DNA from: a bacterium
GTDB lineage: Bacteria; Patescibacteriota; Minisyncoccia; Phycocordibacterales; UBA5272
Length of the DNA: 64,000 nt
NCBI GenBank assembly: GCA_023267635.1
Contig: JAHFMX010000003.1
Location: forward strand, 26,139-90,138
Reading direction: 5' to 3'
Shown here: positions 39,278 to 61,540 of the stretch, in pieces
Layout of the letters: every line of letters begins with the position of its first letter
Position numbering within the stretch: position 1 is the stretch's first letter
Notes under the pieces: generated by a model
Database searches by the model: none
Told to the model about the DNA's origin: nothing
What the model saw: only the letters and a program-made list of their open reading frames with translations
Position numbers and translations under genes: made by a program

Positions 39278-39511
39278 ATGTTTCAAAAAGTAAAAAAAAC
39301 ACCTCTGCTTTTCTTAGGTATTTTATTCACAGGAACTCTTAGTGTTATTAGTCTTGTGTCCAGTTATACTCGTACAAGTTATTCCAAGGATGATTCTTTT
39401 TTTATTGCTACTGCTAATGCTGATCTTGGAAATTGGTCCTGGGGCGGCGGCGGCGGCGGCGATGGCTGTGGAGGGTGCTCTGGGGCGGGAGGAGATAGCG
39501 CAGGTGGTTAA
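39278..39511 (+). CDS. candidate TOMM precursor peptide with Gly/Cys/Ser-rich core (microcin B17-like)
   Basis: 77 aa; C-terminus GNWSWGGGGGGDGCGGCSGAGGDSAGG contains GCGGCS as in the McbA core; directly downstream of YcaO; N-terminal hydrophobic segment. Confidence 0.5.
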   Translation: MFQKVKKTPLLFLGILFTGTLSVISLVSSYTRTSYSKDDSFFIATANADLGNWSWGGGGGGDGCGGCSGAGGDSAGG

Positions 39512-39522
39512 TTTATAAAAAT

Positions 39523-40722
39523 ATGGAACCAATAAAAACAACAAGTAGTTCTTCTTATAAAAGAATAGGCACCATTGCCTTAAGTGTAATTGTTGTATTT
39601 TCTCTTTTATATATTTATATATATAATGCATCAAAAAATAAAACCCCTAAAAATGGAACTTCAAATGAAGAGCGTGTTAATGCTTATCGAATGAGTCTGC
39701 TTAGCAATGAGCCAGCCGCTCTTCAGGAAAATTTTGTAAAGGATGTTAAATTAGGGGTTAACGATATGTACACAAAATCAGATGTGTATTTTATCACACA
39801 TAGATTTTTTGATAATAATGGAAATATATATGAGATATATGATTTTATAGAACTTCACCCAGAACTTGCTTTCTTAAAAGAAGCCGAGACTATTTATCCA
39901 GGAGTCTTTGAAAAAATAAAAAACAGAACCCTCTCTTCTATTGCTACAGATTCTGGTTACTATGCTTATCTTGCATATGTAGAAATCTTAATGAAATATG
40001 GCTATACAGATATTGCAGCAGTCGGAACTGCTGCTGGTCAGTATGCTAAACTTGCTTATGTTACAACAGAAATAGCAAAAGAAATGCCTAAAAATGAAGG
40101 GGTTGAACGTTCAAAATACGCAAAAAGAAATATTAAAAAATCTGCAGATTTTTTAGTGTTTGCTACAAAAGATGTTGAAAGAATACTCAACGGAGAATTA
40201 ACTTCAAAGGATATCATCCCTCAAGATATTCTCGTGGGACTTAATCAATATGCTGCCGCGCTACGATATCGTGAAGCGCTCGGGTTTAAACATTTTTCAC
40301 CTAAAATGGTAGAGTCACTTAACAAAATTGGAGTTAAGGCATCTTCAATAAAAACACCAGAACAGATCTTTGCTTTCACAACAGAGTACTCTCATCGCTT
40401 TGTGCCTGAATTAAATCTATTTACGTCTCTCTTAAATGCTTCGACACTGGCCATTTTAGCATCAAGCACTCCTCAGGATATAAAAGTTGCCCTGTATCCT
40501 CTTCTTGATTTTGATACAAAGAATACTAGAAATGCTAATTTTTTAAAGATAGGAATTATTCCTAAAATATTAGACTCAAGATTTGAGAAAAAGCCTGATA
40601 ACATAGGGGAAACCGCAATGGATATTTATAGCAAAAGAAATACCTTAAGACTTGCAAACAAAGTCCCAGAATTCAAAGCCTGGCTCATGTTAAATGGGTG
40701 GGTTGAAGCTGATTTTAAGTAA
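39523..40722 (+). CDS. membrane-anchored hypothetical protein, paralog A (399 aa)
   Basis: N-terminal TM anchor; shares LAFLKEAETIYP block and identical C-terminal 19 aa VPEFKAWLMLNGWVEADFK with the next gene. Confidence 0.5.
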   Translation: MEPIKTTSSSSYKRIGTIALSVIVVFSLLYIYIYNASKNKTPKNGTSNEERVNAYRMSLLSNEPAALQENFVKDVKLGVNDMYTKSDVYFITHRFFDNNGNIYEIYDFIELHPELAFLKEAETIYPGVFEKIKNRTLSSIATDSGYYAYLAYVEILMKYGYTDIAAVGTAAGQYAKLAYVTTEIAKEMPKNEGVERSKYAKRNIKKSADFLVFATKDVERILNGELTSKDIIPQDILVGLNQYAAALRYREALGFKHFSPKMVESLNKIGVKASSIKTPEQIFAFTTEYSHRFVPELNLFTSLLNASTLAILASSTPQDIKVALYPLLDFDTKNTRNANFLKIGIIPKILDSRFEKKPDNIGETAMDIYSKRNTLRLANKVPEFKAWLMLNGWVEADFK

Positions 40723-41854
40723 TTTCTTGAAAGCTAAACTACTAAAAAGTCTAAAAAAGAGGAAAAATGTAGCCCTCCTATGTCTAGCGGTATTGTTTCT
40801 TACGTCAGGGGTGCTTTTCTATGAGAAAGTTATTTTGTCACAAATTAGAGCAACAGAGTATCAAAACGCCATTCAGGAAAATCTTTTCCAAAATAACCCA
40901 CAATCACTTCAAGCTTTTTTTGTAAGAGACATTGCAAATGGTGTGAATGATATGTATACAAAATCAGTTGCGCATTTTCTTGTCCGTAGATATTTTAATA
41001 ACGGTGGAAATATTTACGAGGTATTTAATTATGTGGATAGCCACAAAGAATTAGCTTTCTTAAAAGAAGCCGAGACTATTTATCCTGAAATGTTTGAATT
41101 TGTGAAAAATAAACGATTACCTTTTACATATTCTGATCAAGGTATGTACGCTTCTCTTGCTTATTTTGAAATCTTAGAAAGAAATAATTATGCAGATATT
41201 TCAACACTCGGGACAGTTGCAAATCAGTATGCAAAAATGGCCTATTACAAAGAGCTTATTCTAGACAATCAGTCTAAAGGTAAAGATCTAGATTACCCAA
41301 AATATAGTAAAAGCCAAGTTCAAAACGACACCAATAAAGCTATTCTTTTTATAAAAAAATCTCAAGGAACCATCACAAAAATTGTTGAAGAAAAATTAAC
41401 CGCAAAAGACATTCCTAGTTTTAATATCTTGATTGGTGCCGTGGAGTATGCTTCTGCTTTAAGATATTTTCAAGCCCTAAATGTTGATTTCTCTTCAGTA
41501 ATTTCATCAGAAAAAGTTTTCGTCTTCGCAGTATCGTATTCGTATCACTTTCTCCCAGAGGCTTATTTATCTACGTCTCTTACAAATGCTGCGACTCTCC
41601 TTTTGATTGAATCAACTAACAGCAATCAGCTACGATCTGCAATCTACCCCTTTCTTGACCTTAGTTCAAAGGTAAATAAAAAAACAGGAAGTATTTTAGA
41701 TAAGGTTTTGAAAGCAAAATTTAAAGAATCTGTATCAAGATTTGAAGATTTGAATATATATAGCACTATTAATATAGTAAAAATTGCAAACATAGTCCCA
41801 GAATTCAAAGCCTGGCTTATGTTAAATGGATGGGTTGAAGCTGATTTTAAGTAA
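40694..41854 (+). CDS. membrane-anchored hypothetical protein, paralog B (386 aa; start uncertain, possibly TTG 40729)
   Basis: Paralog of preceding gene with the same C-terminus; the called ATG lies inside the previous gene. Confidence 0.45.
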   Translation: MGGLKLILSNFLKAKLLKSLKKRKNVALLCLAVLFLTSGVLFYEKVILSQIRATEYQNAIQENLFQNNPQSLQAFFVRDIANGVNDMYTKSVAHFLVRRYFNNGGNIYEVFNYVDSHKELAFLKEAETIYPEMFEFVKNKRLPFTYSDQGMYASLAYFEILERNNYADISTLGTVANQYAKMAYYKELILDNQSKGKDLDYPKYSKSQVQNDTNKAILFIKKSQGTITKIVEEKLTAKDIPSFNILIGAVEYASALRYFQALNVDFSSVISSEKVFVFAVSYSYHFLPEAYLSTSLTNAATLLLIESTNSNQLRSAIYPFLDLSSKVNKKTGSILDKVLKAKFKESVSRFEDLNIYSTINIVKIANIVPEFKAWLMLNGWVEADFK

Positions 41855-60433: not shown

Positions 60434-60443
60434 TTAAATACGT

Positions 60444-61313
60444 ATGTTTATCGTCAAATACAAATCAATCTTTATCGGTCTCGCAGTTGTTCTTGTGCTT
60501 ACATCGTTTGCTCTTATGGCAAAGTTCGGCATTCGACAGGGAGTTGATTTCACAGGTGGAACAGTTATCGAAACAAGATACGTTGCTGATATGCCAGAGA
60601 CTATCGATGTCGCAGGATTGCAGGCACAGGACATTAGAAGTTTCAAAACAGGGACATCAACGTATAAGTTTATTTCTACAAAGTCATATGACGAACTTCG
60701 ACCTGTCCTTATCGAAGCTGTAGCGCAGGGAAAGTATATATATGAGGAGACACAGGTAAACACAGTTGGTCCAACCCTTGGTCTTGAGCTTAAAAGAAAA
60801 GCAGGTATCGCGATTGCGGTTGTGGTACTTGCTATTCTAGCCTTTATTGCTTTCTCATTCCGTGAAGTATCACGCCCAGTGTCATCATGGAAGTATGGAG
60901 TTATCGCGATGGTAACGCTCCTTCATGACATTATCGTGCCAACAGGAGTGTACGTCCTCCTCTCGTACTACTTTGGAGCAGAAATCGACACGCTCTTTGT
61001 AATCGCTCTCCTTACAATATTGGGTATTTCTATCTCTGACAAGATTGTGGTGTTCGACAGAATTCGTGAAAACCTTAAGAGTGGGAATATCAAAAACTTT
61101 GATGACGTTGTAGGGGTTAGTCTCAAGCAGACGTTTACTCGTTCAATCAATACATCAGTTACAGTGATCCTAGCTCTCGTAGCGTTATTCTACTTCGGCC
61201 CAGAGGCAACAAAGTTCTTCGCACTCACTCTTACCATTGGTATGATTGTGGGAACATATTCTTCAATCTTCGTAGCATCTCCTTTGCTTACGGTGTGGAA
61301 TAAGGGTAAGTAA
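60444..61313 (+). CDS. secF: SecF (copy 2)
   Basis: Identical to 49442..50311. Confidence 0.85.
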   Translation: MFIVKYKSIFIGLAVVLVLTSFALMAKFGIRQGVDFTGGTVIETRYVADMPETIDVAGLQAQDIRSFKTGTSTYKFISTKSYDELRPVLIEAVAQGKYIYEETQVNTVGPTLGLELKRKAGIAIAVVVLAILAFIAFSFREVSRPVSSWKYGVIAMVTLLHDIIVPTGVYVLLSYYFGAEIDTLFVIALLTILGISISDKIVVFDRIRENLKSGNIKNFDDVVGVSLKQTFTRSINTSVTVILALVALFYFGPEATKFFALTLTIGMIVGTYSSIFVASPLLTVWNKGK

Positions 61314-61540
61314 ATAGCTAATAGCACACAGGAAATAGTGAATACAGTAAGCCGCCCCGTAGGGGCGGCTTTTGGTTTCTGTCAGGGCGCTAAGGCGAAC
61401 TACGGGGTTGGACCTTATAGTTCAATATCTCCGCATTGCGGTACGGTAACGATTTTGTCTATTCGGTGTTTGTTGTATATGCCATACTTTTAGTGTATAT
61501 GGAGCAGGTGGTGCTAAGGTGTGGGGGGGGTACGCCTTCA

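Follow-up and report, generated by a model that had tools for sequence, protein, structure and literature searches.

A perfect 11,002-bp tandem repeat around secDF in an uncultivated Patescibacteria bacterium: a probable young duplication bordered by microhomology

Is a base-perfect, head-to-tail repeat of 11 kb in a metagenome-derived sequence a duplication carried by living cells, or was it made by the assembler? The question is raised by a segment within the window (the whole stretch of DNA analyzed, 64,000 nucleotides). When the window was compared with itself at an offset of 11,002, positions 39500-50510 and 50502-61512 matched in one perfect run of 11,011 nt, with 0 mismatches and 0 N, and the period of 11,002 was also returned by a separate repeat search of the window. 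The perfect 11,002-bp tandem duplication claimed in the original prediction was therefore observed directly, together with the claimed recurrence of open reading frames (all were found again at +11,002) and of a G9 run, present at 42675-42683 and 53677-53685. Chance is of no concern for a perfect repeat of this size. Both copies of the unit (X) lie in direct, head-to-tail orientation, and the arrangement can be written as U-X-X-D, where U and D are the flanks. The elements that define it are as follows:

39500..50501, unstranded: copy 1 of the 11,002-bp unit X, 100% identical to 50502-61503
50502..61503, unstranded: copy 2 of the 11,002-bp unit X, 100% identical to copy 1
39500..39508, plus strand: left microhomology GCAGGTGGT, in the final codons (...S A G G stop) of the gene for a 77-aa peptide
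50502..50510, plus strand: junction microhomology GCAGGTGGT, where the unit end meets the unit start
61504..61512, plus strand: right microhomology GCAGGTGGT, intergenic, 190 nt past the secF stop codon
50481..50531, unstranded: 51-nt stretch with all 21 junction-specific 31-mers, diagnostic for the junction in reads, from a de Bruijn graph simulation

The microhomology was found at all three sites where it had been predicted, and it is one base longer than the proposed 8 bp (GCAGGTGG), since the next base, T, is common to all three. The common end of the unit is thus the 9-bp sequence GCAGGTGGT, which occurs in the window at only three positions, 39500, 50502 and 61504. The native U/X junction reads ...GGAGATAGCGCAGGTGGTTAATTT... 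and the native X/D junction reads ...TATATGGAGCAGGTGGTGCTAAGG..., while the novel sequence at the join is ...GTGTATATGGA|GCAGGTGGT|TAATTTATAA..., with ...GTGTATATGGAGCAGGTGGTTAATTTATAAAAATATGG... as the sequence that spans it. Among 200,000 random joins simulated within this sequence, a microhomology of at least 9 bp arose with a probability of ~9e-5; the microhomology at the junction is non-random. A fusion gene at the join was ruled out, as the only ORF that arises there has 7 codons. No promoter-like site created at the junction was found, and an Rfam search revealed no RNA families in or near it.

The gene content of the unit, including complete secD-secF and a sodium:solute symporter, is as originally described. 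Features of the unit and of the gene at its left edge are listed below:

39278..39511, plus strand: 77-aa peptide gene, putative substrate of the adjoining SagB/YcaO pair; N-terminus hydrophobic, C-terminus rich in Gly/Cys/Ser
39523..40722, plus strand: 399-aa membrane-anchored protein, no family
40694..41854, plus strand: 386-aa paralogue of the 399-aa protein
41870..42577, minus strand: short-chain dehydrogenase (SDR; PF00106, E = 3e-21)
42853..44283, plus strand: sodium:solute symporter family transporter (PF00474, E = 4e-27)
44361..46144, plus strand: two overlapping genes, 230 aa and 364 aa, no family
46195..48004, plus strand: displaced secD 5' end, followed by a 1.7-kb insert
48022-49431, plus strand: secD (Pfam match)
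49442-50311, plus strand: secF (Pfam match)
50347..50369, plus strand: intrinsic terminator-like hairpin after secF, upstream of copy 2 in the duplicated allele

The genes upstream of the 77-aa peptide gene encode a SagB-type dehydrogenase and a YcaO protein. The YcaO family (PF02624) and the SagB model (TIGR03605) scored above their cut-offs, and the SagD model (TIGR03604) scored below its own. The peptide itself had no family match in profile searches. Its gene remains whole, and X includes just the final 12 nt of it; the predicted tail of a putative TOMM precursor gene is thus present in X, and it amounts to three codons and the stop, without a second peptide gene. The genes for the 399-aa and 386-aa proteins have a common 126-nt 3' repeat (87% identity), and an SGGxDS-like PP-loop motif, with a weak match only, is present in the 364-aa protein. 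The displaced secD 5' fragment (46195-46279) is 91% identical to 48005-48089, and the 1.7-kb insert that follows it, which holds a RhuM/Fic-Doc gene at 46847-47725 and two palindromes (46514-46553 and 47953-47996), is missing from a relative (L011). SecD and SecF are each 98% identical in amino acid sequence to those of a Ca. Nomurabacteria MAG, and in a relative secD and secF are syntenic with dsbB. The region is rich in accessory DNA, with a low-GC island, the RhuM/Fic insert and a zeta-toxin islet.

The same DNA is present at 100% identity in three independent MEGAHIT metagenome assemblies. Two of the three traverse the entire unit and hold one copy of it, with GCAGGTGGT at each end: contigs k141_5411625 of ERZ27279942 and k141_4313707 of ERZ27279977 correspond to window 31491-50501 joined to 61504-63362, at 100% identity. 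The third assembly, ERZ27279937, crosses the left boundary of the unit without a branch. Copy 2 is missing from the MEGAHIT contigs L001, L005, L007 and L009, in which 50501 is joined straight to 61504. Contigs L001 and L005 consist of U, X and D with GCAGGTGGT at both unit ends, which shows the parental allele. Since the unit-spanning assemblies hold one copy, the duplication has not reached fixation and may be carried by a minority, and the lack of a branch in the MEGAHIT contigs indicates that the junction is either absent from those samples or present at low relative depth. A 31-mer taken from the unit end, able to hit the native as well as the novel junction, gave 0 matches in GTDB genomes, IMG/VR and JGI metagenomes, and other carriers are therefore not represented in these collections. 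A search for publications mentioning the run and assembly accessions found none.

Evidence for the junction itself came from Logan, a resource in which singleton 31-mers are discarded and the graph is simplified with Minia3 (PMC12424806). A de Bruijn graph was simulated at k=31 for each allele model, and the predicted contig break points were compared with Logan contigs built from public reads SRR14366791, which are exact substrings of the window. When the 31-mers that connect the unit end to the unit start were included, the simulation broke exactly at 39529 and 61483; a single copy alone gave no break, and a deletion allele broke at 39508/61504. As can be seen in the Logan contigs, L004 of SRR14366791 ends at 39529 and L008, identical in two samples, starts at 61483. 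Two control contigs behaved as the graph demands: L010 (41840-46237) breaks where internal 31-mer repeats require, and the start of L077 at 48108 had been predicted from such repeats ahead of the look-up. The 51-nt junction unitig is too short for Logan to report, and the support lies in the contig end points, which provide indirect but strong evidence that the junction 31-mers are present in the SRR14366791 reads; a circular X or an array of at least three copies would produce the same 31-mers. Given that Logan drops singleton 31-mers and cleans the graph, the junction 31-mers would have been seen at least twice and have survived cleaning. Another Logan contig, expected to end at 50510 and sought through a guessed, 5'-cut SecF product, is not on record. 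Logan also lacks an intact SecF, because L077 stops at 49446.

Since an independent k=31 graph branches at both junction-specific nodes, the junction most probably belongs to the data and was not invented by the assembler. The Logan branch points thus supply indirect read support for the junction, which an assembler-induced expansion would lack, and pure assembler invention of the repeat is unlikely. Of the two readings originally offered, microhomology-mediated duplication and assembly artefact, the first agrees with the anatomy of the join and with the motif standing once at each unit end in L001 and L005, and the second, as a pure artefact, is hard to sustain.

We consider it probable, at roughly two chances in three, that the repeat is a real tandem duplication of 11,002 bp, microhomology-mediated and very young on an evolutionary scale, in an uncultivated Patescibacteria (Candidatus Nomurabacteria-like) population. 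The parental chromosome would have had two GCAGGTGGT motifs at a distance of 11,002 bp, one in the final codons of the peptide gene and one in intergenic DNA past secF. An illegitimate, RecA-independent event would then have paired the downstream GCAGGTGGT with the upstream one on a sister or template strand, either through a nascent 3' end that switched template during replication or through unequal sister exchange at the microhomology. The product would be U-X-X-D, which gains one junction and leaves every gene uninterrupted. We infer this mechanism, the location of both copies on one chromosome and the copy number of exactly two. The duplication seems to be polymorphic, coexisting with the single-copy allele, and the duplicated allele is probably the rarer of the two. 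The original prediction had read very recent origin from zero divergence. This does not follow: a loop in a short-read graph that is walked twice yields identical copies by construction, and if the copies arose in this way, their perfect identity is uninformative on recency. The proposed doubling of gene dosage can at most be deduced from the repeat, as the first genes of copy 2 lie behind the secF terminator and the join provides no promoter-like site.

It is also conceivable, if unlikely, that the junction is real and present in the reads while the linear two-copy form reflects the shortest path that the assembler could take through a loop in the graph (U-X-J-X-D). In reality there would then be a rare subpopulation allele, an array of at least three copies, or single-copy chromosomes accompanied by an extrachromosomal circle of X. 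All these states share one graph topology, and a single copy together with a circle of X was simulated to break at the same points as a tandem duplication; in the MEGAHIT assemblies the region is reduced to a single unbroken copy, and the copies are identical to the base, as traversal of a loop would yield. However, an excision circle should leave a deletion allele behind. Such an empty-site allele was rejected, since the breaks predicted for it at 39508/61504 were not observed and Logan contigs extend beyond both. In addition, X has no recognizable replication or recombination gene, and a circle would therefore not persist at detectable depth. A duplication carried as a minority allele would still be a real tandem duplication, and to that extent this explanation overlaps the preferred one.

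An artefact with no biological counterpart, namely chimeric molecules that arose at the 9-bp G-rich match during library preparation or PCR and were multiplied as duplicate reads, or an erroneous join made in assembly or curation, appears distinctly unlikely. Template switching at short G-rich matches occurs in vitro too, the unit-spanning MEGAHIT assemblies show one copy, and the third crosses the left boundary unbranched. Against this, the contigs of an independent assembler broke at two independent points, each at exactly the base predicted, the right-hand Logan contig is common to two samples, and Logan discards singleton 31-mers and removes weak connections. To our knowledge, assemblers do not join on 9-bp overlaps, and a randomly pasted duplication would not carry the 9-bp microhomology (P as given above).

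That X is a mobile element whose attachment core is GCAGGTGGT and whose tandem or circular state results from site-specific recombination is highly improbable and was rejected: direct repeats do flank the unit, and the region is accessory-rich, but no integrase, transposase or recombinase was found in X or the adjacent genes (Pfam, at E <= 1 for unknowns; NCBIfam; PHROGs; four proteins remained without a family), no phage or plasmid similarity of the unit was found, the core genes secD and secF, syntenic with dsbB in a relative, lie inside it, its left end falls within a coding sequence, its ends carry no inverted repeats, and no empty-site allele was seen.

In our estimate, it is improbable that the duplication represents a copy-number polymorphism that is adaptive and under selection in a natural population of this uncultivated, reduced-genome bacterium. 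If it did, the dosage of SecDF, of the solute symporter and of genes adjoining the YcaO/SagB peptide cluster would be higher; a transient state between the single-copy and duplicated forms would have been captured in public metagenomes, and the locus would be an in situ case of duplication-amplification dynamics, which are known to date chiefly from Enterobacteria in the laboratory. For practical purposes, a suspicious perfect repeat in a metagenome-derived sequence is here probably no invention of the assembler, and the single-copy allele is probably at least as common. For anyone working with the genome, secDF, the symporter and the neighboring genes are best regarded as polymorphic or unverified in copy number. 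The comparison of predicted k=31 unitig breaks with Logan contigs served as a read-level test of the junction without access to the reads, and may be reusable.

The locus can be set beside several known systems. Integrative elements with att sites resemble it in their short direct repeats at both ends and accessory genes inside, and differ in that X has no recombinase, contains core secDF, has one end within a coding sequence and lacks an empty-site allele. Mis-resolution of a short-read de Bruijn loop would likewise give base-identical copies that other assemblers collapse to one, whereas here an independent k=31 graph branches at both junction-specific nodes. A close known kind is represented by the spontaneous RecA-independent duplications of Salmonella and E. 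coli. The amplicons of E. coli lac amplification are 7-32 kb long and arranged as tandem direct repeats, with 4-15 bp of G-rich homology at their borders (Slack et al. 2006; PMC1428787). The present case differs from the lac amplicons in coming from an uncultivated Patescibacteria bacterium known from metagenome sequence alone, with only two copies represented and no known selection. The two agree in their head-to-tail repeats, with the 11-kb unit falling within the 7-32 kb range, in having one novel junction, placed at a short G-rich homology that measures 9 bp in X and 4-15 bp in the lac amplicons, and in a single-copy parent with the motif at both unit ends. The duplication is an ordinary kind of bacterial copy-number variant and not a new kind of system; it opens no new question and adds one more natural example, in a candidate-phyla-radiation bacterium, to the well-known tandem duplications bordered by microhomology.

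A self-comparison of the window with a shift of 11,002 gave one perfect run, in which 39500-50510 equals 50502-61512 (11,011 bases, 0 mismatches, 0 N); a separate repeat search of the window again returned a period of 11,002. The perfect 11,002-bp tandem repeat of the original prediction is thus confirmed, as is the recurrence 11,002 downstream of every ORF found and of the G9 homopolymer (42675-42683 and 53677-53685). The end shared by the units had been given as 8 bp; these bases and their third instance are present, but the true motif, GCAGGTGGT, is 9 bp long with five G, and has no site in the window beyond the three at the unit ends. 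That zero divergence implies a very recent event does not follow: should the source be an assembly from a short-read graph, identity of the copies is no evidence of recency. The source contig was absent from the collections searched. Features of the unit and its left flank are listed below.

39500-50501: copy 1 of the unit, perfect self-match at offset 11,002
50502-61503: copy 2 of the unit, perfect self-match at offset 11,002
61504-61512: third instance of the terminal motif GCAGGTGGT
36968-37705: SagB-type dehydrogenase (TIGR03605 above cut-off)
37712-39214: YcaO protein (PF02624 above cut-off, TIGR03604 below cut-off)
39278-39511: 77-aa ORF with a hydrophobic, signal-peptide-like N-terminus and C-terminus ...WGGGGGGDGCGGCSGAGGDSAGG
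39523-41854: two paralogous membrane-anchored proteins, 399 and 386 aa, no family assigned
in unit, minus strand: short-chain dehydrogenase
in unit: sodium:solute symporter
in unit: two proteins, 230 and 364 aa, no family assigned
46195-46279, in unit: displaced second copy of the secD 5' end
in unit: 1.7-kb insert with a RhuM/Fic-Doc gene and two palindromes
in unit: secD and secF
50347-50369, in unit: terminator-like hairpin

As predicted, secD, secF and the symporter all lie in the unit. The 399- and 386-aa paralogues, encoded by adjacent genes, each carry a membrane anchor at the N-terminus and share an identical motif at the C-terminus, ...VPEFKAWLMLNGWVEADFK; no family was matched in Pfam, NCBIfam or PHROGs. 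The left breakpoint falls in the last three codons of the 77-aa ORF, which is whole in copy 1; copy 2 retains 12 nt only, with unrelated sequence 5' of them, and the tail of the TOMM precursor gene said to be carried by the unit is limited to these 12 nt. The right breakpoint is intergenic, 190 nt past the secF stop and 82 nt ahead of a 67-aa ORF, which is followed by a zeta-toxin gene and dsbB. No gene is interrupted by the duplication, and the new ORF at the join has 7 codons only. No integrase, transposase or other recombinase was detectable in or beside the unit, and the unit matched no phage or plasmid records. The octamer GCAGGTGG at the join is one base off the E. coli Chi site, GCTGGTGG. 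It occurs at 39500, 46368, 48124, 50502, 57370, 59126 and 61504 on the plus strand and at 31035, 42174 and 53176 on the minus strand (four and two distinct sites in the window, respectively, when copy 2 is not counted), and its likeness to Chi is probably a coincidence.

SecD and SecF are 98% identical in amino acids, and about 90% in DNA, to their counterparts in a MAG labelled Candidatus Nomurabacteria; farther matches are all from Patescibacteria/Paceibacterota. Because dsbB directly follows secD-secF in this relative and a divergent YcaO/SagB/propeller region precedes them, both breakpoints lie in strain-specific accessory DNA flanking the core genes secD and secF. Their positions do not match the accessory-block borders, which speaks against a defined element having been excised or integrated, the least favoured reading.

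The 77-aa peptide adjoining the SagB/YcaO pair of this Patescibacteria genome (36968-39511) has a Gly/Cys/Ser-rich tail. In the relative (L011, 2347-6055), a divergent YcaO/SagB pair with 25-33% amino-acid identity to that of the window is followed by an ORF starting MCASGCDGSGDGSGDGGGDASDGW, with a similar stretch rich in Gly/Cys/Ser/Asp. The first ~85 nt of secD, start codon included, are found twice (46195-46279 and 48005-48089, 91% identical), on either side of the 1.7-kb insert that carries the RhuM/Fic-Doc toxin-like gene (46847-47725), a 40-nt near-palindrome (46514-46553) and a perfect 44-nt palindrome (47953-47996). Absent from L011, this insert resembles what is left of an element that inserted into the secD 5' end and provided a replacement start. 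Between secF and dsbB, only about 40 nt apart in L011, lies a 1.6-kb islet (61316-62898) with 67-aa and 68-aa ORFs and the zeta-toxin kinase gene (61974-62813). G+C content is 31-38% over 34000-46000 versus 39-47% over 1-32000; the dip runs through the YcaO/SagB region into the duplicated unit, of which it covers the first half, and is consistent with an acquired island. Two minus-strand RNA genes were also seen, a tmRNA gene (23096-23487) and a tRNA-Ile with anticodon TAT (UAU) (26849-26922), which is uncommon in bacteria.

An exact-protein look-up retrieved two single-copy MEGAHIT contigs, ERZ27279942 k141_5411625 (20,870 bp) and ERZ27279977 k141_4313707 (20,865 bp), both 100% identical to the window with 31491-50501 joined directly to 61504-63362. 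With X denoting the unit and U and D its upstream and downstream flanks, their structure is U-X-D with GCAGGTGGT at either end of X, the exact parental structure needed for a microhomology duplication. In a third sample, ERZ27279937, a short contig crosses the left boundary unbroken. These contigs also show the junction of X end with X start to be absent or weak in the assemblies they come from; MEGAHIT prunes edges of low local depth, or else breaks contigs at such branches. The final 83 bases of ERZ27279937 k141_5677505 (L002, 3520-3602) are Illumina adapter (AGATCGGAAGAGCGTCGTGTAGGGAAAGAGTGT...) followed by poly-A, an untrimmed contamination of the deposited assembly. Every independent assembly stops at two tandem 66-nt units of 80% identity (31586-31717, inside the minus-strand ORF 30617-32059): the MEGAHIT contigs break off at 31631 or begin at 31491, and the Logan contig L004 begins at 31651, an exact unit boundary. 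This suggests that the repeat varies in copy number or sequence within the population.

Logan contigs derive from k=31 de Bruijn graphs of single SRA runs with Minia3 simplification; once-seen 31-mers are dropped, and the 31-mers of one accession are distinct by construction (PMC12424806). A tandem duplication is therefore visible only as branch points, never as two copies. The k=31 graph was simulated for window alleles, and the predicted end of the U unitig and start of the D unitig were read off and set beside Logan contigs from SRR14366791, which are exact substrings of the window.

simulation, X-end-to-X-start junction 31-mers present: U ends 39529, D starts 61483
simulation, single-copy sequence only: no break in U or D
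simulation, additional deletion allele: U ends 39508, D starts 61504
31651-39529: L004, SRR14366791, ending at the predicted junction break
61483-62991: L008, SRR14366791, starting at the predicted junction break; identical contig reported in two samples

Since contig ends in the region occur roughly once per few kilobases, it is very improbable that chance alone put two of them on precisely the bases predicted. These end points give indirect yet strong support for the presence of the novel junction, more than once, in the reads of at least one run, and probably of two. Two controls, L010 (41840-46237, limits set by internal 31-mer repeats) and L077 (starting at 48108 as predicted in advance, and retrieved via a 5'-cut SecD product built on that prediction), show that Logan contigs behave as k=31 unitigs. 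L077 stops at 49446, the secD/secF boundary, where the window has no 31-mer repeat, and no intact SecF was found among Logan records; the stop may reflect another polymorphism or a gap in the coverage of SRR14366791.

The original prediction, which allowed either a microhomology duplication or an assembly artefact, is partly supported: the data are best explained by a tandem duplication that is real and polymorphic, with a probability of about two in three. The linear two-copy path could be the assembler's minimal walk through a loop, and what it stands for might be an allele carried by a minority, an array with more copies or a circle; the k-mer content of these was indistinguishable from that of a tandem duplication in the graph simulation; an excision circle is opposed by the absence of the reciprocal deletion allele from the Logan graph and by the lack of recognisable replication or recombination functions in X. 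Another possible origin of the junction is a chimera formed in vitro and present in clonal copies. A repeat made purely by the assembler is unlikely in view of the Logan break points. A random pasted duplication would show 0-2 bp of microhomology (P of at least 9 bp about 9e-5 for random joins), and an overlap of 9 bp is too short for assemblers to join on.

If the segment is duplicated, secDF, the symporter and those other internal genes that have promoters of their own would be at twice the dosage, as originally proposed. Expression of the two genes after the peptide gene may not double, because their second copies lie downstream of the secF terminator and no promoter-like site was found at the join.

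We infer that a nascent 3' end terminating in GCAGGTGGT after secF would anneal, on the sister template, to the complementary upstream copy that lies in the peptide gene and synthesis would then resume, or that unequal sister exchange would occur at the same sites; the product would be U-X-X-D. Such duplications are unstable, being lost through homologous recombination between copies, which fits coexistence with the single-copy allele. In E. coli, amplified DNA is arranged as direct repeats in tandem, 7-32 kb in size, with 4-15 bp of G-rich homology at their borders, and long-distance template switching in the course of replication has been named as the cause (PMC1428787). With a unit of 11 kb and a 9-bp join containing five G, the anatomy seen here matches such RecA-independent, microhomology-bordered tandem duplications, and the case would be a new example of a familiar type of event.
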